NCBI GenBank assembly: GCA_026986575.1
Contig: JALSOH010000004.1
Location: forward strand, 96,001-160,000
Source: Thermoproteota archaeon
GTDB taxonomy: Archaea; Korarchaeota; Korarchaeia; Korarchaeales; Korarchaeaceae
Reading direction: 5' to 3'
DNA length: 64,000 nucleotides
The translations under genes were made by a program, and so were the position numbers. Position 1 is the stretch's first letter. Each line of letters opens with the position of its first letter. Positions 48,535-64,000 of the stretch are shown here, one piece after another. The notes under the pieces were generated by a model. That model was not told where the DNA came from. It saw nothing but the letters and a program-made list of their open reading frames with translations, and did not search any database.

Positions 48535-50041
<1,507 letters not shown>

Positions 50042-50226
50042 ATTATAATACCAATACCAAGGCCTTCTGGGCCACCCACCCGTGATAGGGACATCCGGAC
50101 TCTCAGTCGGATGATGCTCCGGAGGCGCCACCTCCGGAGTTGAGGCGCAAATCCCGTTAGTTGCCCGCTAACGGGAAATGTGCGCCCCGCATAGTTGGCG
50201 ACGCTACAGGCTGGCGCTAGGTCGTT

Positions 50227-53250
<3,024 letters not shown>

Positions 53251-53470
53251 ACCGACCTAGCGCCAGCCGGCGTAATCGCCAACTATGCGGGGCGCGTTCG
53301 TTTTCACACATATATCCATGGAAAACTTTCCTTTCCTAGAGTCTAGGGTCTTTCTAAAAGCTGTTTCGAGCTTTACCCATTTCGTTAACTTCAAGGATTT
53401 ATTTCATTATTATCTCATAATTAAAGGGAAACTTATATTTCTCCCCCCCCCCAGAATCAGGGTGATCATA

Positions 53471-53773
53471 TTGAAGATATATGGGATTGAAAGAGAGGTA
53501 TTTGCACTTTCTCTCGCAATCCTGTTAATACTGCCGTTAGTAGCCAGTATACCAAACTCCATGGGTGTCTGGATAGGGACCTATGTAAGAACGTGGTCTG
53601 TGAAGCGTGCTCACAGGATGGCTAGCTGGGCGCTTGATCAGATTACCGATCCCATCGGATGGGCAATAGGACACCATACTTGGTACACACGCCTCGCATC
53701 TATCGCACTCATAGCTTATACTGGCATTGGACCTTATTACGCGGCATTCACGATAGGATTCACTGTAGGGTGA
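53471..53773 (+). CDS. Putative circular bacteriocin-like (archaeocin) precursor, 100 aa
   Basis: TTG start after GGTGAT SD; hydrophobic leader ending ..IPN, Trp/Gly/Ala-rich core; GTGA overlap with SpoIIM-like gene. Confidence 0.6.
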   Translation: MKIYGIEREVFALSLAILLILPLVASIPNSMGVWIGTYVRTWSVKRAHRMASWALDQITDPIGWAIGHHTWYTRLASIALIAYTGIGPYYAAFTIGFTVG

Positions 53774-54312
53774 CAGAAATTATTAGAACATCCTGTTTAC
53801 CCGAGTTTTTTATTCTAATCATTTATCTATCATCGTTTGTTGTAGGTACATGGCACACCTTTAACGAAAATGGCGCTCGGGATGGATCCTTCCATCTGAA
53901 GGATGTTAAAAATATTAATATAGATTACCTCGATTTCTTCAGGATGGTATTGTTAAATAATTTAGTGGCAGGTATCTTAATCATTGTGGGAGGATGGTTG
54001 TTCTGCATACCGACTCTCTTAGTCCCCATAGCTTCGGGTTACTTTGCTGGGCTTTACTTTGGAGCTGCTTACAGAGCTTATGGACTCTTCATTTCCTTAA
54101 TTTTGTACATTCCCATGCCCTTGGAGATAGCCGCCATAGTTATCCTAGGTCATGTATCCTTCAAGCTATGTAAGGAGAATCTCAGGAGATTAAGGGGAAA
54201 CGACTCGGATGCTCCTTTGCTCAGAGGCCATATTAAATCTATCACATACGGTATTTTCCTCATAGTTGTAGGTGCTGTGATCGAGACAGTTATTCAATTC
54301 TACATCGGTTAA
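53770..54312 (+). CDS. SpoIIM/DUF95-like membrane protein
   Basis: LNNL...G....IPT.....G...G, P..LEI.A, GAVIET motifs typical of the stage II sporulation M family. Confidence 0.75.
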   Translation: MTEIIRTSCLPEFFILIIYLSSFVVGTWHTFNENGARDGSFHLKDVKNINIDYLDFFRMVLLNNLVAGILIIVGGWLFCIPTLLVPIASGYFAGLYFGAAYRAYGLFISLILYIPMPLEIAAIVILGHVSFKLCKENLRRLRGNDSDAPLLRGHIKSITYGIFLIVVGAVIETVIQFYIG

Positions 54313-54342
54313 ATTCATGAATGAGATCGCCGAGGGAGATTT

Positions 54343-54936
54343 ATGAGGCTATTCTTTTCCTTCATGCTAGTGCTTCTCACGGGAATCATGGTACACCTTT
54401 ACTTCACTATGCCGTTCTTAAAGCCTAGTACCTCCACATACGCCGAAATGGATGTCCGCATTATAAGGGGATCTTTCCTACTCACTCCGGTATTTTCCAG
54501 CCTCATAGTCGTCCTGATATGGGCTGTGGAATCTTCTTTAGCCTCGCTCGTCATCAGAAGATCGGTGAGAGGGGCGGAAAGGTCCCACATAAATTTAGGC
54601 GTCATAATGAGCGAATTTTCCTTGGGATACGTTCCTGAATTTATCTTCCTCCTCATAATAGTCCCGCTCGTATGGTTCAACCTCCCTGAATACACAGTGA
54701 CCTCTGTGAAGGAGCTTATTAACGCATCTAAGAGCCTAGGAGAGTCTCCATTATACGTAAACGGGATGCTCGCTCTGATTGCTGTATCCATATCTCGCTA
54801 TCCCATATACGCAGCCATACTCAGATACAGATTGGATATAGGATGGAGGGAGACCCTCACTATCATCGCCCTGCTTATCATTGTTGATACACTCATAGCT
54901 TTGTGGGGAGGAGGGTTCGACTTAGGTAGGGGGTGA
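54343..54936 (+). CDS. Yip1-like multi-pass membrane protein
   Basis: About 5 TM segments, LGYVP motif; position in cluster. Confidence 0.55.
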   Translation: MRLFFSFMLVLLTGIMVHLYFTMPFLKPSTSTYAEMDVRIIRGSFLLTPVFSSLIVVLIWAVESSLASLVIRRSVRGAERSHINLGVIMSEFSLGYVPEFIFLLIIVPLVWFNLPEYTVTSVKELINASKSLGESPLYVNGMLALIAVSISRYPIYAAILRYRLDIGWRETLTIIALLIIVDTLIALWGGGFDLGRG

Positions 54937-54943
54937 GTTAGGC

Positions 54944-55591
54944 ATGAGAACTGAAGATAACCTCATCTTAGAGGTTAAAAGGATAAGTAAAAGGCTCGGG
55001 AAGAGACAGGTGTTAGCAGATGTGAGCTTCGACGTGAGGAATGGAGAGGTAGTCCTCATAAGGGGGCCCAATGGGTCGGGAAAGACGACGCTTCTAAGAA
55101 CCATTGCTGGGGTGTTTAGACCAGATTCCGGTCGAGTACTCCTATTGGGAAGGGATATTCACGAGGATATGGGTGTGAGGAGAGAAATCAGCTACTGTCC
55201 TGAGAGGCTAGGCCTTCTTGGGGATTACACAATCGAGGATAACATGATGTTCTTTACCAAAGTGTTCGGGAGATCGTTCGACGAGCACAGATTTAGAGAC
55301 TACGTGAAAGGGTTTCGGCTCGAGGGATACTCGGATGACAAGATATCCAAGCTCTCGGCTGGGACTAGGAAGAAGGTGGCTATCATCAGGACTCTCGTCT
55401 TCCCGGCTAGGCTGTACCTGCTTGACGAACCACTAGCTAACCTAGACGAGGAGAGCGTGAGCTTTTTAATTGAGGAAATTAGGAGAATGGCCGATCTAGG
55501 ATCTTCCTTCCTGATATCTTCTCACATAGAGTTCCCGGCTGCTGATCGTGAATTAGAGATGAGAGGTGGGGGACTTGTCGAGGTTAGGTGA
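54944..55591 (+). CDS. ABC transporter ATP-binding protein
   Basis: GPNGSGKTT, LSAG, YLLDEP, SSH. Confidence 0.93.
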   Translation: MRTEDNLILEVKRISKRLGKRQVLADVSFDVRNGEVVLIRGPNGSGKTTLLRTIAGVFRPDSGRVLLLGRDIHEDMGVRREISYCPERLGLLGDYTIEDNMMFFTKVFGRSFDEHRFRDYVKGFRLEGYSDDKISKLSAGTRKKVAIIRTLVFPARLYLLDEPLANLDEESVSFLIEEIRRMADLGSSFLISSHIEFPAADRELEMRGGGLVEVR

Positions 55592-56309
55592 CCTAATAGC
55601 GGGTCACCTCTACCTAATGGGTGGATTGACCAATGTCAGGGAGATCTTCGTGTTCTTGAGCCCACAGATCCTGTTTTTGGCACTAGCTGAGGTCATAGCA
55701 GGATCCAGGACGTATACAGAATTATTGATGGTTACTTCGTTGCTTGAGAGTTTTTCCTTAGTCATTACGTATATTCTCCTTGGTATCGTGGTGCCGGGGA
55801 GGCTAATCAGATTAAGCTACTCGATGAGAGATGCCGGAATGATGGAGATATTCCTGAATCAGGGGGTTGGATTGGATCAGGTATTGCTGTCTCTCTGGAT
55901 CGGTTCGTCCCTAAAATACTCCTTATACGTGATTGCAGGAAGCCTGATAGCCCTGCTCTCTTTATACCTAGCTGGATGGATGACAGTAGTCGAATTCCTA
56001 ACGGCATTGGGCGTGATCGCCGTCATGGTCACACTCTTCTCGGCAATTTGCATTACCCTATCTCTTATCCTTCCTCCCAGTGAAGCTCAATACTGGTCTC
56101 AATTAGTCTTTTTCCTGATCTTCGGATATTTATACTTAGGTTTCCTCAATCCCCGGAATTACAATGATATCGTGAGGCTCTTCTTGGGCGGATACTTAAA
56201 CCCCATGTCGCTGGGTGGAGGGGCCATAGCAACCTTTCTCGTAATAGTTTTACTGATAGGATTATCTGAGGAGAGGGGGGATATTATTGAAATTGATGAG
56301 GTTAAATAA
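55575..56309 (+). CDS. ABC-2-type permease-like membrane protein
   Basis: About 6 TM, RDAGMMEIFL motif resembling the ABC-2 E..G..E.LL. Confidence 0.65.
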   Translation: MSRLGDLIAGHLYLMGGLTNVREIFVFLSPQILFLALAEVIAGSRTYTELLMVTSLLESFSLVITYILLGIVVPGRLIRLSYSMRDAGMMEIFLNQGVGLDQVLLSLWIGSSLKYSLYVIAGSLIALLSLYLAGWMTVVEFLTALGVIAVMVTLFSAICITLSLILPPSEAQYWSQLVFFLIFGYLYLGFLNPRNYNDIVRLFLGGYLNPMSLGGGAIATFLVIVLLIGLSEERGDIIEIDEVK

Positions 56310-56973
56310 TCTAAATGCCCAAATCACCTTGGAATTGACTTTGCTTGTAAGGGGTAGGGGAAAGAGGATCGGGTGGTTAATTAGGGTACTCGTGGTCTCC
56401 ATGGCTGTGCTGTCGCTGGGTCTGCTAAGCTCACTGGAGTTGGGTAATCTCAAAAACATTTACCTATCACTCCCGGGTGTATGGCTCCTGTCTTCGGCCT
56501 TGATGATGGATAATACGGTCGAGATAAAGAATAGCGGTCTTGCTGAGATTTTGCTCCAGACATATGGGCCTTCATATTTGGGTGTGAGGTATCTCCTATA
56601 TACTGTGGTAACGATACTCCTATCAATATCCTTTATTTTGCTGGGAGGCTCTGTAGTTTCACTGATGGTTGGGATAGGATTATCGGGTTTGGATGCCATT
56701 TCCTTGCTATCTCTCTCCGTCATAGGTTCAACGGCTTTAATGACCGTTACAGTCTTATTATCGGTGAAAATTGGTGGCCTGAGGTTATTAGACACCTTTT
56801 CCCTAGCAAGTGGCGGACTTACCCTCCTCCTGATCATTTCCATGCCTTCTATATTGGAGGCGCTTAATCAAGAGTTGTTTGTTTGTATGTTGCTCGCTGG
56901 GACATTCTCCATAGCTGTTCTGACTATAGTGTACCTTAAGAGGCATGACTTTCCGGCATTATTAACAATCTAG
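56296..56973 (+). CDS. ABC-2-type permease-like membrane protein
   Basis: About 6 TM, EIKNSGLAEILL motif. Confidence 0.65.
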   Translation: MRLNNLNAQITLELTLLVRGRGKRIGWLIRVLVVSMAVLSLGLLSSLELGNLKNIYLSLPGVWLLSSALMMDNTVEIKNSGLAEILLQTYGPSYLGVRYLLYTVVTILLSISFILLGGSVVSLMVGIGLSGLDAISLLSLSVIGSTALMTVTVLLSVKIGGLRLLDTFSLASGGLTLLLIISMPSILEALNQELFVCMLLAGTFSIAVLTIVYLKRHDFPALLTI

Positions 56974-58074
56974 TGTCTCGATATTTCCCCTCATGTTCTT
57001 CCCTTCATCTTATATTAGGTTAAAGCATCCGAAGGGCTTGAGAAATTAGAAAATTCGAAGAGATTAGGACTTCTAAGGATCCAATCAAGTATAATTTGAG
57101 GAGAACCCTTAGTCGGAGTGACAGTCAAGAACTCAGTATTGTTCTCCTCACCTGAATTCTCTGGAGATTGTTTCGGCAGTACTGTAAATATTTTAACCGG
57201 TTTAAGCCTAATTAGGCGTCCAAGTGAATATTAGGTGGTTAAGGATCATGAGCGAGATGATGATCTTCTATCCTCTCACTTCGATCCTAACAGCATTGTT
57301 CGTAGAACAGAGGCCGCTTGATAATTTTTTATGTTTTTTTATTACTTTTTAGACGATACTATGCGAAGAAATCAAATTATGCGCGTGGTAAAATAATTAA
57401 AAAAGAAATCTTATTTCTTCAGACTTTTTGGAAAAATTACTTCTAAAGAAAATGCCAAAAAATGTGTTAAAAATTAGATACCTTCAACATCTCTTCTTTA
57501 GGAGCAGAGGTGCTTCTCGCCCCAAACACCTAATTTGCATCGATAATACCTTTTTAAGTGGCCTAGGCAGCCACTTGCTTAGTCGAGAATATGCTTTTTA
57601 TTTTGCACCATTTTTTGGTGATGCGTTGCGATAGCGCATATACACTATGTCACCACCTACTATTGGACCTACCCGCATTAGTTACTAATGCGAGCTGGTA
57701 GAGCTCTCGGTGTTTCAGCAAAATTGTTGTATATAGCTCGAGGATCCTTTGGGCCGTTAATCTTGCTAGAGAAGCACTATAATTTACAAAGTTGATGTCC
57801 TTCAGATGGCTTCAGCCAAATATGTCGAGTCAGAAAGGCTCTTAGCCAAGGATGGGGCTGCATGAGTGGCTACCAATAAAGGGATTAACTAACGAATGCA
57901 AGCCTCCGTCTCCGAAGGCCGAGGATACGAAAACTGTGTTTCCAGTAGAAACCATCAAATGGAAGCCACCACACAAATGATAATCTTCTAGATATCAACA
58001 TTGATAACTTGGAAGCTTCCTACTAGGAAAAGGCTAATTGGCTCATAAAGCCATATTTGACATGGGTGTAGGGA

Positions 58075-58275
58075 TTGTCTAAAGCCATATGGGTGAAGTA
58101 TGAGAAGGGGGTATTGAAGCCTCTGGAGGAGCTAGACCTCCCTGAGGGCGAGGTATTGCTTGTAAAGTTAATTGGGACACAATTGGCAGAGAAGGTATTT
58201 GGTTCCATAAAGGTCGATAAGGAGAGGCTCGAGCACTTTCTGAGGGAAGCTGAAGATGAGTTCGGTGTTTATTGA
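58075..58275 (+). CDS. Antitoxin, AF2212/DUF104 family
   Basis: YEKGVLKPLE.LDLPEG. Confidence 0.9.
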   Translation: MSKAIWVKYEKGVLKPLEELDLPEGEVLLVKLIGTQLAEKVFGSIKVDKERLEHFLREAEDEFGVY

Positions 58276-58690
58276 TAGTAATGTATTCATTAAATACTTT
58301 GCTGGTGACATAGAGGCTAGGAGGCTCTTAGAACCGATAATTTACGGAGATATGCAGGGCTACATTAATAACGTAATTTTCTCAGAAGTACTCTTCATTT
58401 CAGTAAAGCTTCTCACGGGAAGGAAAGCTTACGAATTAAAGAAGAATCCGGAAATAATCAAGAATATATTCGATAAAATAACGGATTACGTTCTCTTCCT
58501 ACGGCAATACTTCAAAGAGTTAGAGATAAATGAAGAGATAAAGCAATCGGCGTATGAAATAATCAGAGACTACGGGCTACTACCCAACGACTCCTTAATC
58601 GCGGCAACATGCAAACACTACGGCATAGATACCATAGTGACTTTTGATGTAGATTTCAGGCGTATACCGTGGCTCAACGTAGTTCCCTAG
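58256..58690 (+). CDS. vapC: VapC PIN-domain toxin
   Basis: FIDSNVF, SEV, YGLLPNDSLIAATC, TFD.DF. Confidence 0.93.
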   Translation: MSSVFIDSNVFIKYFAGDIEARRLLEPIIYGDMQGYINNVIFSEVLFISVKLLTGRKAYELKKNPEIIKNIFDKITDYVLFLRQYFKELEINEEIKQSAYEIIRDYGLLPNDSLIAATCKHYGIDTIVTFDVDFRRIPWLNVVP

Positions 58691-59320
58691 GTTTAGGTTT
58701 AGCTGATGAGTCCTAAGCTAGGAGGATATGCGGGAATGAGGCGGTGCAATGAGCACGTCCTGCCTCTTTTATTAGTGTGGTTATGGATGTTCATCGGTTT
58801 TGTTGTCACCAGCATTTTGTTAGCTATATTAAAAGGGTGTAGTTCACTTCAGAGCGTATCATCGAATTGTATAGCAATGAGCCCTACTTAGCGGTTTACG
58901 GCGAGATAACTAGTATGGGAGGGTTACCTCTCCCATCTCAATCCTATGTGGAGACAGTTTCACGATGTATGGTTTTAGAAGGCAGGGAATGCTCTGAGGA
59001 GCTTAGGGTTATTATCTATATTTGCCATTGTCATGTCAACATTGAGAACCATGCGGAGCGACTGATCCTTTGAGAGCTTTAACCTAAAGTTCCCCCTTAA
59101 TGTTTGGTATGCAGTATTGGGTGTCTTAGCTTACGGTTCTCTAGAGATTTTCTTTGTGGTATGGCTTATAGTAAATGTCTATAGGGTACCTAATAAGTGT
59201 GGAAGGTTATTATCTCATGAGCTACTCATCACTGCTACAATACTTAGTTTGTCGCATTTGGTACTATCCCCTGCAGGTGGAGATCAACGAGAAGGCTGGT
59301 GGGAAGGATTACCCCGTAAG

Positions 59321-59743
59321 TTATGGTCTACTCCCTTCTCCTCAGCCCACTTGATCAGCGATAATGCAAGCTTTTCTATGTCACTGTAGAGCTTATCCTC
59401 CAAGATTTTCCTCACGATATAAAGATCCACAGACTAATACTGATTGATCACAACGTTCCTGAATCTTATGATCTTCCTGAACAGCTCAGCCTCGGGATCG
59501 CTCAGGCAGCTCTCCCGTTTCAGGATCTGAGGGATTCCTATAACTCTAGGGGACAGCAGCTCCAACCTTCGAGGCTGTATGAGCCGTCAGAGCTATGAAC
59601 GCTTGAGATGCTAACTGGAGGGCGTGTAGAGCTGATAGAAGGAGAAACTTATCCTTTAAAATAGCGATTCCGTGTCTCTGAATCCCCTCATCCAGTAACT
59701 CGGTGCCCTCCCTGATGACTTATAGGAGCCTCTCGTTTCTCAT
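59321..59743 (-). pseudogene. Degraded DUF86/HepT-type HEPN RNase
   Basis: MRNERLL*VIREG...LHALQLASQA...P*SY / FRKIIRFRNVVINQY*SVD; three stops and one frameshift. Confidence 0.75.
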
Positions 59744-59900
59744 CTCAGATCCCTCTCCGCGGCCTTTAAGAACTTCCTCCTGAGGTCCAACTTCTCCCTG
59801 AAGACGAGGTAGTCTAGGTATTGGGAGAGGATCCTTCTCTTATTACTCGCTGCAGAGCTGGGGATCCGAGGATCAGAGCGGGATCTCAGATTACAGCGTC
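59740..59900 (-). pseudogene. Probable C-terminal remnant of the cognate MNT antitoxin
   Basis: ...LSQYLDYLVFREKLDLRRKFLKAAERDLR* with ATGA overlap to the HEPN pseudogene; 5' part missing. Confidence 0.45.
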
Positions 59901-59950
59901 GTACAGGAGGCGCGCGCATTCATGCGATAACCCATATGGATCCTCTGCTT

Positions 59951-60466
59951 TTACCCTTCAGCTGAACTCTCTCCGCTTTCTTCACCGCTCCTCTTCTCCT
60001 TCCAAGGTTCTCTTAGTTCTCCTGGCTCTGAGAGCTTATCACCGTACTTGTAGAACAATATGTAGATGAAATAGCTCCCTGCCACTAAGAAGGCAAAGTC
60101 ACGAAGCTCTTTGCCGGGAATTAAGTCTGAGCTAATCCCCAGTCTGATGAGCGTATACGGATAAAGCACTACCATCATAACGTAGAAGGTTATCAGAGAG
60201 AAGAAGACGTATATGAGAGCATATCTCGTTCTCCTTACTTCCAGCATGTAGTAGTCGATCGCACCGATCAGCCCGAAGCTGGTAATTACTATGAGCACTC
60301 CTTCTATAAAAGGTAGATACCTGTTATTCTTACTGGCAACCGGAAAGTATGTAATGAAATGATAGATTAGCATGGCAAAAAGCATAAATATAGTAAATAA
60401 TATCCTCTCTTTGGATGATTTATTTGAACCTCCTACATCTTGAGGCCTTAAGGTACGCATTGACAT
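59951..60466 (-). CDS. 4-TM membrane protein, candidate immunity protein
   Basis: Four hydrophobic segments; overlaps the end of the Cys-rich precursor gene. Confidence 0.65.
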   Translation of the reverse strand: MSMRTLRPQDVGGSNKSSKERILFTIFMLFAMLIYHFITYFPVASKNNRYLPFIEGVLIVITSFGLIGAIDYYMLEVRRTRYALIYVFFSLITFYVMMVVLYPYTLIRLGISSDLIPGKELRDFAFLVAGSYFIYILFYKYGDKLSEPGELREPWKEKRSGEESGESSAEG

Positions 60467-61173
60467 ACCGTACCTACCTCGCTACAACATCCGCCATACA
60501 GGGTAAATACTAAGCAAAAGGGACACCAGACTATCAAGCATTCCCAGAATGCCGGAACATTTCTACAGCTAGCGCAGCAATTGAGAAGACATGAGATATT
60601 CCATCTACAGCAGTACGCGGAGCAACTGCAGTAGTCCCCACATGAATCATATCCTGGATATGCTGTGCAATTATGAGCGCAACTGCTCAAATTTATATAT
60701 GAACCATTGATGATTCTAGCATCAATTGATATATAGTCTTTATGAGAGCTGAGAATCAACGCTATACTTCTAATTTCATTGACTAATTTAGTGCCCTTCA
60801 TATAAATTAAATACTTTCTTTCCTTAAGTGGGATTAGAAGCAGTACTGCTGTGACTATATCTCCATCGACCGAAAATCTAATGAGCGAGCCTTTAGGTTG
60901 AGATGCCTTAAGATCATTTACATTAAGTGCGCCCCTCTCTATAAGAGAAATCACATCATTTGATTTTAAAGCCTCTGTAACGAAATTTTTGAGCTCTGCT
61001 CCCTCCAGTTTCATGTGATCCAATTCAACAAAATAGGGTTCATTTCTTAATCCTTTGTTCGCCTTTATTTTGAGATCTCCTGTACAAGTAATTGATACTA
61101 TGCTGAGAAGAGATGCCTTTAATGCTTCTTTAATAAACCTCCTTCTGCTCAAATTAATTCTCCATAGGCGCAT
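60448..61173 (-). CDS. Twin-arginine secreted precursor with Cys-rich C-terminal domain (halocin C8-like architecture)
   Basis: SRRRFIK Tat motif; 18 Cys in the last ~77 aa. Confidence 0.65.
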   Translation of the reverse strand: MRLWRINLSRRRFIKEALKASLLSIVSITCTGDLKIKANKGLRNEPYFVELDHMKLEGAELKNFVTEALKSNDVISLIERGALNVNDLKASQPKGSLIRFSVDGDIVTAVLLLIPLKERKYLIYMKGTKLVNEIRSIALILSSHKDYISIDARIINGSYINLSSCAHNCTAYPGYDSCGDYCSCSAYCCRWNISCLLNCCASCRNVPAFWECLIVWCPFCLVFTLYGGCCSEVGTVCQCVP

Positions 61174-61533
61174 GAGCGTAATAGACATTCCTGAAATATA
61201 AATTCTACGTTCTATTCCTATGCATTCTTTCCTTGAGAATCTCACCTTACCCTCTACATTTCCGCCCTCAGGCCATATCGCGTTTAGGGCTTCCTTGAAT
61301 CCTAGATCCGCTGATCTGAACAGTCTGATCGCAAGTTCCTTGAGGTAGAGACCAATTTGCCTCCTTTAACTTGGCCTTTATTAACTCTTTGTTCTTTCTC
61401 GCTTTTGTCTCCTTTATTCTCGTCTCTACGATTCTTCTGAGCTTCTCAGCGCGCGAATAGGATTATTAAAGTTCATCACAGATCTTCGGGAATTCGTTAA
61501 ATACTTCCCGAAGATTTAATGCTTGGAACCCTC

Positions 61534-61945
61534 ATGAGGGACGAAGCCAGAAGGTGGTTCTCTGAGGCGAGATGGAACTTGGAGACCGCTAGGATATTGC
61601 ATGATAGGGGAAGATACAACGCCGCTTGCTTTTACGCTCATAGCCGCGGAGATGGCTGTCAAAGCCCTCTTGATAAGCAGGAACGAGCCTCCTTGGAGCC
61701 ACGGCGTGAGGGCCCTGCTCGAGAGGTATTCGGAGATCAGTGGTGAGGACGTGTCCCTCCTCTTACCTCACGCCAGGGAGCTGGACAGGCACTACATCCC
61801 CTCCAGATATCCGAACGCCCATCCATACGGGACGCCCCACGAGGCTTACGACAAGCCAACCTCCATAAAGGCCATCGGAAGCGCGGAACTAATATTGGGT
61901 TACGTGGAGGATAGGTTGGATGGATCTCAGGAAGCTGGTGAATAG
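61534..61945 (+). pseudogene. HEPN-domain protein, frameshifted at about 61642
   Basis: MRDEARRW...YNAACFYAH / AAEMAVKALL...HGV..LDRHYIPSRYP; GCT CAT A GCC implies a 2-nt loss in the expected Gln codon. Confidence 0.85.
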
Positions 61946-62312
61946 GATAAGGGAGAGGTATAGGGTCTACGCGATCATACTCTTCGGCTCACGGGCCAGG
62001 GGAGACTGGCTCCCTCACAGTGATTACGATCTTCTCGTCGTGGCCGAATTCAAAGAGCCCTTCCTAGACAGGATCTACGAGCTCTCCGGATTGGCTAAGG
62101 GCCCTGTGGAATTCCATCCCTACACCCTCTACGAGGTGAGGGAATTACTGAGGAGGGGCGTTCCATCGATCGTTGATGCCCTCGAGGAGGGCATCGTCCT
62201 CTACGAGGGGGAGGAGTTCAGGGAGGTGAGGGAGCTTTTCGAGGAGATGAAGAGGAAGGGGCTCAGGAGGAGCGGTGTATCGATCATATTGCCCGGAGGT
62301 GATCAGCCGTAG
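61920..62312 (+). CDS. Minimal nucleotidyltransferase (MNT)
   Basis: ILFGSRARGD..PHSDYDLLVV, ALEEG. Confidence 0.92.
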   Translation: MDLRKLVNRIRERYRVYAIILFGSRARGDWLPHSDYDLLVVAEFKEPFLDRIYELSGLAKGPVEFHPYTLYEVRELLRRGVPSIVDALEEGIVLYEGEEFREVRELFEEMKRKGLRRSGVSIILPGGDQP

Positions 62313-63836: not shown

Positions 63837-63910
63837 AGCGGGGTGGGGCAGCCTGGTAGCCCGCCGGGCTCATAACCCGGAGGTCGGTGGTTCAAATCCA
63901 CCCCCCGCTA
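63837..63910 (+). tRNA. Initiator tRNA-Met(CAU)
   Basis: A1-U72, GGG/CCC anticodon stem, ct-CAT-aa. Confidence 0.93.
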
Positions 63911-64000
63911 CTTGAAAAGTTTTGACATTATTTCGTGTTTTCTGATGTATATTTTCCTATAAATCCGAGTTATTGAATAAAACCATCTATAACATCCCCT

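Follow-up and report, generated by a model that had tools for sequence, protein, structure and literature searches.

Can a small gene lying just behind the ribosomal RNA (rRNA) operon of an archaeon encode a peptide that is cut from its leader and closed head to tail into a ring? This question is raised by an open reading frame (ORF) of 100 amino acids (aa) at positions 53471-53773 (+) of a stretch of 64,000 nucleotides (nt) from a member of the Korarchaeaceae (assembly GCA_026986575.1, contig JALSOH010000004.1, positions 96,001 to 160,000), which is called the window here. An earlier note, made from the letters alone, had read the ORF as the precursor of a 71-aa ring, with a leader resembling that of gassericin A, cleavage after Asn29 and ligation of Ser30 to Gly100. 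We lean towards the reading that the ORF encodes the precursor of a small exported, membrane-active peptide, which would be matured by the SpoIIM/DUF95 protein encoded directly downstream and handled by an ATP-binding cassette (ABC) transporter, and that the locus corresponds, in an archaeon, to the gene clusters behind the circular bacteriocins of Bacillota; by analogy with these, the peptide may be cyclised. The earlier note stands in part: a precursor-like gene does lie in a cluster of circular-bacteriocin type, and the parts left without support are cleavage exactly after Asn29 and any likeness to gassericin A beyond layout.

Bacteriocins closed into a ring are prized because they are extremely stable, and which enzyme closes them has still to be defined. 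According to a 2018 review, all known circular bacteriocin clusters carry a PF01944 gene (PMC6131525), and a precursor, a DUF95 protein and a protein that binds ATP are named as required of every cluster (Xin et al. 2020; PMC8534725). The DUF95 protein has been proposed, in a 2026 paper on pumicyclin, both to cut and to ligate (PMC13463998). In archaea, DUF95 (arCOG01996) and ABC ATPases are listed among the commonest families of 'dark matter islands', with no function assigned in that account (Makarova et al. 2014; PMC4158269). In the literature searched we came across no account of circular peptides of the DUF95 type from an archaeon: archaea are not mentioned by Xin et al. 2020, the main text of a 2026 preprint on bacteriocins in archaea contains none of the words 'circular', 'DUF95' or 'SpoIIM' (its supplementary tables could list single archaeal homologues), and a 2023 survey of archaeal lanthipeptides likewise makes no mention of circular peptides, DUF95 or SpoIIM.

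The probable precursor gene and its cluster

The 100-aa ORF runs from a TTG codon at 53471 to a TGA stop at 53771-53773, and its translation is identical to the string given in the earlier note. As that note had remarked, the ORF list buries the gene in a longer frame; this frame, of 162 aa, opens with an ATG at 53285, 28 nt past the end of the 23S rRNA gene (large subunit, 50220-53257; small subunit, 48535-50041). The public gene call, P0002, is a 151-aa version that starts upstream of the TTG in non-conserved sequence, and the leader and core architecture is therefore hidden from family searches; gene callers currently mis-start such small ORFs in this way or miss them. The TTG start is supported because the N-terminal extension is not conserved, the same frame being open for just 113 aa and 108 aa in the related genomes G020 and G003, and because a Shine-Dalgarno-like element is conserved at all three loci. 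The motif on which the note had based its start (GGTGAT-CATA-TTG) is present in the DNA, as GGGTGAT (53460..53466, +) followed by CATA and the TTG, and AGGGTGA(T/C)C is kept 4-6 nt before the start at 3 of 3 loci, with TTG as the start codon in the window and G020 and ATG in G003. Farther upstream, an A/T-rich element, CTTATATT, at 53432..53439 (+), about 30 nt before the start codon, may be an archaeal TATA box, and an A/T-rich element lies at a similar distance before the start in both relatives. Between this element and the ribosome-binding site stands a homopolymer of ten C (53443..53452, +) that has seven C in G020; the length of this tract, variable between close relatives, could alter expression of the precursor.

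Comparison with G003, across synonymous sites that are saturated (proportion of synonymous differences per site, pS, 0.855), gives a nonsynonymous proportion, pN, of only 0.303; the sole long indel is in frame and the position of the stop is shared. From these three properties it follows that the 100-aa ORF is a real gene under purifying selection. A leaderless peptide starting at the invariant Met31 was also considered and rejected, since the 29 codons upstream are conserved as coding sequence (pN 0.38 versus pS 0.99) and the Shine-Dalgarno-like element precedes them.

The precursor family is very narrow and fast-evolving, with four members: the window protein, its counterparts in G020 (94% identity) and G003 (55%), and P0003, a protein of 97 aa (53%). 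Among 61 genomes (the window's own and 60 relatives) only G020 and G003 contain a relative, the other 11 matches listed having E-values of 0.039 or more, and an exhaustive HMMER search of 1.84 billion representatives recovered the window's own protein and P0003 as the one further member. Three other matches of that search (P0004-P0006, 450-640 aa, with six to eight short matching stretches each) were set aside as repetitive or of low complexity, P0004 being a tandem-repeat protein on inspection. A scan of metagenome contigs with the family profile yielded 157 pattern matches and no relative, and a scan of genome contigs yielded 38 pattern matches and three tblastn hits, two of them the known G020 and G003 loci, and no new relative; the remaining hit, in Stenotrophomonas, covers only residues 18-50 around the hydrophobic leader and was treated as chance. 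Word-indexed protein searches with the precursor or with its SpoIIM neighbour each returned just the query's own record, the Protein Atlas gave no lead (best score 0.75, to a bacterial cluster), and tblastn of the precursor against plasmids gave a single chance hit (E=3).

What brings the precursor close to circular bacteriocins is the gene that follows. A stand-alone SpoIIM/DUF95 membrane protein of 180 aa, with four transmembrane (TM)-like segments, is encoded at 53770..54312 (+) and matches PF01944 with E=1.4e-15 (58 bits; cut-off 26.9). Its GTG start, placed by comparison with G020 and G003, overlaps the stop of the precursor (GTGA, 53770-53773), an arrangement by which the two genes are translationally coupled. 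By analogy with the bacterial clusters, this protein would be the enzyme that cleaves the leader and closes the ring. It is followed by a 197-aa membrane protein with five TM-like segments (54343..54936, +), which has orthologues in G020 (97%) and G003 (34%) and no Pfam or NCBIfam match, by the 215-aa ATP-binding protein of an ABC transporter (54944..55591, +; PF00005, E=1.6e-30), which is 26% identical to the ATPase of the plantacyclin cluster (E=5e-17), and by two permease-like membrane proteins, each with five TM-like segments, no Pfam hit and an orthologue in G003. The first of these permease-like proteins (247 aa; 55566..56309, +) overlaps the ATPase gene by 26 nt and the second (228 aa; 56287..56973, +) overlaps the first by 23 nt. 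All three genes required by Xin et al., namely the precursor, the PF01944 gene and the PF00005 gene, are thus present, and the whole six-gene set is conserved in three genomes, following the rRNA operon in G020, as in the window, and occupying a contig of 3.4 kb in G003.

The closest bacterial parallel is group ii of the circular bacteriocins, represented by gassericin A (gaa cluster on pLgLA39), plantacyclin B21AG (pB21AG01) and plantaricyclin A. Direct comparison with plasmids pB21AG01 and pLgLA39 gives the same order of precursor, SpoIIM/DUF95, a small gene, ABC ATPase and permease (of the ABC-2 type on the plasmids); in both systems, too, the cluster has no protease gene. The window differs in its archaeal host, in having two permease-like genes, and in encoding the 197-aa protein with five TM-like segments where group ii clusters have an immunity gene of about 54 aa, a position from which a role for this protein in immunity or maturation may be proposed. 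The precursor and SpoIIM proteins of the two systems have no detectable homology beyond the Pfam domain. BLASTP finds no significant alignment between the SpoIIM proteins of the two systems, and in a multiple alignment they are about 24% identical. Glu119 and Glu172 are invariant in all eight SpoIIM sequences compared; around residues 113-120, those of the window, G020 and G003 read PM-PLE or PL-PLE, in place of the (P/F)HGxxE that is found in four paralogues and in the SpoIIM proteins of the plantacyclin and gassericin clusters.

The G003 contig (L009, 3428 nt) has a rotated order of the same genes: ABC ATPase, the two permeases, precursor, SpoIIM and the five-TM protein, with the contig ends breaking inside the first and last genes. 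It has no terminal overlap, and the missing gene ends are on no other contig, so that a rearrangement, a tandem copy and a small circular element are indistinguishable there.

Proposed leader and core, and competing explanations

The proposed leader, residues 1-29 (53471..53557, +), has a polar N-terminus (MKIYGIERE), a hydrophobic run of 16 aa that includes Pro22, and a terminal ASIPN; its true end could be at residue 25, 29 or 30. A hydrophobic N-terminus of 25-30 aa together with an ORF that ends at an invariant Gly agrees with the description of circular bacteriocin precursors, which have leaders of 2-48 aa and no C-terminal extension. Group ii precursors likewise have a long hydrophobic leader (about 30 aa) that is polar at its N-terminus, and no C-terminal extension. 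The leader of gassericin A had been described correctly in the earlier note: in gaaA of pLgLA39, TKYG and VELFA are followed by a run of hydrophobic residues, and the leader closes with an Asn, after which comes IYWIA. The layout is matched by KIYG, EVFA (ELFA in G020), a hydrophobic run and Asn29 in the window, and to this extent the asserted likeness is real, although no homology is detectable and the likeness has no statistical support.

Could the peptide then belong by descent to the gassericin A subgroup (PF12173), having come from Bacillota together with a leader homologous to that of the subgroup and its Asn-dependent cleavage? The shared K-x-Y-G, E-(V/L)-F-A, hydrophobic run and terminal Asn of the window and G020 leaders, a V-W-I after the cleavage region in both systems, the common gene order and the location in a low-GC island all speak for such an origin. 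These leader features are confined to a single lineage, however: G003 and P0003 start later, read GRVFVV and KKILLF in place of EVFA, and have neither the K-x-Y-G nor the terminal Asn. PF12173 has no match to the window protein (E<=0.1), anywhere in the genome (E<=10) or to G003 or P0003 (E<=10), in searches whose positive controls, gassericin A and plantacyclin, score 4.2e-50 and 2.4e-26; BLASTP against gassericin-type precursors gives no alignment at E<=100, and hhalign assigns a probability of 0.6%. With these results, with a core that differs in size and hydropathy (see below) and with the distant SpoIIM, descent from this subgroup is very improbable, and the resemblance of the leaders is better described as one of layout than of common descent.

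The exact cleavage site is affected in the same way. Conservation of Asn29 had been set beforehand as the refutation test for cleavage at that residue, and the outcome went against it: Asn occupies the position in the window and G020, that is in two of the four sequences and one of the three lineages, and Ala in G003 and P0003. The following residue is Ser, unlike the Ile of gassericin A-like leaders, which are 33 aa long and cleaved between Asn and Ile, as is reported for plantacyclin (PMC7452424); the window leader would be 25-30 aa. Four positions before Asn29 the window and G020 read V-A and the other two members V-N. In every lineage an Asn stands at one of these two positions and an Ala-Ser at the other, and therefore neither kind of site, gassericin-type or signal-peptidase-type, keeps a fixed position. 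What is conserved begins just beyond: Ser30-Met31 and the C-terminal GFTxG do not vary among the four sequences, each of which has the invariant Gly100 as its last residue before the stop. A conservation boundary does exist at Ser30, where the earlier note had placed the beginning of the ring sequence, since the identity of window and G003 rises from 11 of 24 positions in the leader to 41 of 71 in the core, and pN falls from 0.38 to 0.28. Because conservation is higher from Ser30-Met31 onward than in the leader, the boundary may plausibly fall near residues 29-31; plausible too is, more broadly, a leader end near residues 25-31 with a ring of 70-75 aa. The 71-aa ring proposed through Ser30 and Gly100 survives as one of at least three candidates (A25/S26, 75 aa; N29/S30, 71 aa; S30/M31, 70 aa), without support for cleavage exactly after Asn29. 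In pumicyclin, position +1 is reported to tolerate I/L/V/M and not Ala (PMC13463998); by analogy with that rule, cleavage between Ser30 and Met31, with a hydrophobic residue at +1, may be a better fit than a Ser at +1.

The same leader allows a serious rival explanation, in which it is an ordinary Sec signal peptide that signal peptidase I cuts off, what is left is a small linear protein, secreted or associated with the membrane and possibly of linear bacteriocin type, and SpoIIM and the ABC transporter serve immunity, transport or some other role. Signal peptidase I favours positions -3 and -1 occupied by small residues. An n-region, an h-region of 16 aa and a c-region can be recognised in the leader, and in each lineage a single Ala-Ser dipeptide ends the hydrophobic run (LVA/S in the window and G020, FGA/S in G003, FVA/S in P0003), suiting a small residue at -1; between lineages the site shifts by four alignment positions, which is common for signal peptides, and the other small ORFs described below are also signal-like at the N-terminus (for example VLLA/E and TPAA/T). 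Yet the charge bias is reversed, with a net charge of 0 in the n-region (+1 in P0003) and +4 in the 15 residues after the uncharged run (+1 in P0003), and the Phe at -3 in G003 and P0003 is unfavourable under the -3/-1 rule. A signal peptide would also leave unexplained the invariance of the C-terminus up to the stop, the coupling to SpoIIM and the repeated pairing of a small ORF with a stand-alone SpoIIM. The signal-like look itself is compatible with cyclisation, because the leaders of real group ii precursors look equally signal-like. We regard a linear Sec-exported product as unlikely, and still as the alternative to be taken most seriously. The Sec-dependent class II bacteriocins, compared here by general description of the class, are alike in being small cationic peptides behind a signal-peptide-like N-terminus; to our knowledge, their clusters are without SpoIIM/DUF95. 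A 2026 preprint names archaeal homologues for two of them, enterocin P and hiracin JM79 (10.64898/2026.07.27.741052).

The proposed core, residues 30-100 (53558..53770, +), is cationic, rich in Trp, predicted to be all-helical, and ends in the invariant GFTxG. Its composition agrees with the earlier description: counted from Ser30 it has 71 aa, five Trp, no Cys and the patch RTWSVKRAHR. It has five Lys and Arg residues and two Asp and Glu, a net charge of +3, an isoelectric point (pI) of 9.7, a grand average of hydropathy (GRAVY) of 0.30 and a linear mass of 7933.0 Da; the cores of its relatives reach 77 aa, +5 and pI 10.9, with GRAVY values of 0.02-0.25. An amphipathic cationic helix in the core has a hydrophobic moment of 0.62, a value reached by 18 of 2000 shuffled sequences. 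Across the would-be junction of Gly100 and Ser30 the uncharged span measures 36 aa in the window, 42 aa in G003 and 18 aa in P0003, and a long uncharged junction is found in group ii as well (41 aa in three real peptides). Group ii cores are otherwise distinct, with 58 aa, GRAVY 1.0-1.06 and net charge 0 to +2 against 71-77 aa, 0.02-0.30 and +3 to +5 (pI 9.7-10.9) in the window family. By charge, the window core resembles group i, not group ii. Group i (enterocin AS-48 and pumilarin, with 70-aa cores behind leaders of 35 and 38 aa) is similar also in a ring of about 70 aa, high pI, a long leader, and DUF95 with an ABC transporter, according to the review (PMC6131525); it differs from the window peptide in hydrophobicity, which is lower in the latter, and in that the window precursor matches no bacteriocin family or PDB entry, this comparison having been made by published description.

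A hydrophobic N-terminal segment together with an uncharged C-terminal stretch of 26 aa could instead belong to an uncleaved, two-segment integral membrane protein acting as an accessory subunit of a SpoIIM/ABC-transporter complex. All other products of the cluster bar the ATPase are membrane proteins, and some small ORFs linked to SpoIIM elsewhere look like plain multi-TM proteins (two of 113 aa in G003 and one of 111 aa in G030). In the window precursor, however, only the leader (segment 3-21) passes the Kyte-Doolittle threshold for a TM-like segment and the C-terminal stretch falls below it, and the middle of the protein is the strongly amphipathic cationic helix typical of peptides at the membrane surface. 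The leader evolves faster than the core, and a fast-evolving family of such narrowness (four members among the 1.84 billion representatives) is more easily understood for a peptide with a role in conflict or an accessory role than for the subunit of a transporter. A structural membrane subunit thus appears improbable.

Under the reading of a matured membrane-active peptide, the hydrophobic leader of 25-30 residues would hold the precursor at the membrane until it is removed somewhere between residues 25 and 31, and the new N-terminus would be joined to the invariant Gly100, giving a ring of 70-75 residues with its junction in the uncharged stretch of 36 residues. The cationic amphipathic helix would mediate membrane binding, and the ABC transporter and the 197-aa membrane protein would supply export, self-protection or both.

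Several results weigh against this reading. The precursor has no Pfam or NCBIfam match to known circular bacteriocin families; it shows, as set out above, no trace of PF12173 or of gassericin-type sequence; and a profile search of the PDB with the precursor family found no match. The cores of the window family lie below all 14 rings characterised in the review in GRAVY (0.02-0.30 versus 0.54-1.06) and above all of them in size (71-77 aa versus 58-70 aa), within the set tabulated there (PMC6131525). Ser at +1 with a C-terminal Gly makes an atypical pair of junction residues by the pumicyclin rule. The His-Gly of the PHGxxE motif is absent from 3 of 3 members of the window SpoIIM subfamily (window, G020 and G003). 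Between the window and G020 there are six codon differences, five nonsynonymous and one synonymous, which are too few to interpret. Circular bacteriocins form a compact, saposin-like bundle of 4-5 helices in which the ligation site falls within a helix. An AlphaFold2 (AF2) model of the core has four helices at a predicted local distance difference test score (pLDDT) of 61.0 and a predicted TM-score of 0.36, and the full-length model has a pLDDT of 55.6, values too low to use for the fold; a Foldseek search of the core model against the PDB returned a single match (E=9.1).

Small ORFs upstream of stand-alone SpoIIM genes

The pairing seen in the window recurs in the same genome. Of its five PF01944 genes, four are short and stand alone, and each of these has a same-strand upstream ORF of 81-100 aa that is hydrophobic at both ends, with a polar part between them and no charge in the C-terminal one; the fifth, a 460-aa fusion of RDD and SpoIIM, has no such small ORF. 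Outside the window, the small ORFs are found at L013:537-821(+) (94 aa; SpoIIM at L013:1288-1911), at L014:2269-2529(-) (86 aa; SpoIIM at L014:1474-2043(-)) and at L016:2970-3215(-) (81 aa; SpoIIM at L016:1462-2022(-)), the last about 6 kb past the end of the window on the same contig. All three of these clusters are low in GC content (0.38-0.46, against 0.529 for the genome). The three further small ORFs are not detectably homologous to the window precursor (hhalign gives a probability of 0.6% for the window family against the L013 ORF), and at the level of sequence the four types cannot be shown to be homologous to one another. Between the small ORF and SpoIIM at L016 lies a gene (L016:1988-2959(-)) whose product, a membrane protein of 323 aa, contains a Peptidase_M48 domain with a HELAH motif (E=3.1e-22); this protein is a candidate dedicated leader peptidase, of a kind that most bacterial circular bacteriocin clusters appear to do without.

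The recurrence of the module speaks for the reading of a matured peptide. In a six-frame scan of the genome, 11-48 ORFs have the precursor layout, depending on the thresholds, and two to four of these are found no more than 1.6 kb upstream of a SpoIIM gene, where 0.02-0.11 would be expected; at most thresholds four ORFs stand upstream of four of the five SpoIIM genes, with binomial P values from 2.4e-8 to 1.6e-3 over 12 threshold pairs, which are generous because the layout thresholds were set after the four cases had been seen. Against this reading, SpoIIM alone is no marker of ring peptides here, since every genome of the phylum has the RDD-SpoIIM fusion without a small ORF.

When the detector was run on 22 genomes of the taxonomic family, with 34 SpoIIM genes between them, a small ORF preceded 11 of 14 short SpoIIM genes and one of 20 long fused ones, the related genomes not being independent of one another; for the three short forms that were missed, the locus examined extends upstream by 292 nt, by 121 nt or not at all. 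The hits fall into about six or seven distinct types, two of which (in G003 and G030) resemble plain multi-TM proteins. Among 27 genomes of the phylum with completeness of at least 90%, the long form (at L012:700-2082(+) in the window's genome; the frames measure about 474-577 aa) occurs once per genome in 27 of 27 and looks like a housekeeping form. Clear short forms occur in only five of these genomes, and by this contrast the short forms are accessory genes.

A bolder proposal goes beyond the window: that the phylum makes genuine head-to-tail cyclised 'circular archaeocins' by means of stand-alone SpoIIM/DUF95 proteins, with at least four unrelated precursor families in one genome of 1.9 Mb, one module using a SpoIIM that lacks the His-Gly and another bringing its own M48 peptidase. 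We put this forward tentatively, as a possibility about which we remain rather doubtful. If the archaeal version is real, it would provide a new precursor family and, through a DUF95 protein without the His-Gly that keeps two invariant glutamates, would narrow down the residues that matter. DUF95-dependent backbone cyclisation would become a cross-domain mechanism, reaching a second domain of life; with it would come a peptide ligase that is probably adapted to heat, as well as ring scaffolds exceeding all known ones in size, and the very short list of archaeal antimicrobial peptides would grow. The association of small ORFs with stand-alone and not fused SpoIIM genes offers a simple rule for finding such peptides in archaeal genomes.

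The low-GC stretch around the cluster

The cluster shares its low GC content (0.44, against 0.529 for the genome) with a longer stretch of the window. From 53300 to 62000, between the rRNA operon and a transfer RNA gene (tRNA-Met, 63837-63911), GC content per kb is 0.39-0.49, compared with 0.50-0.57 on the flanks, and the stretch looks like an accessory island. It also contains an AT-rich gap at about 57000-58000 without a convincing ORF, and a toxin-antitoxin-like pair. The latter, at 58075-58690 and 1.1 kb downstream of the cluster, consists of an AF2212-like gene (PF01954, E=9.5e-17) and a PIN gene (PF01850, E=5e-19). A close paralogue, by eye, of the AF2212-like gene flanks the L014 SpoIIM cluster on another contig (L014:3-185(+)).

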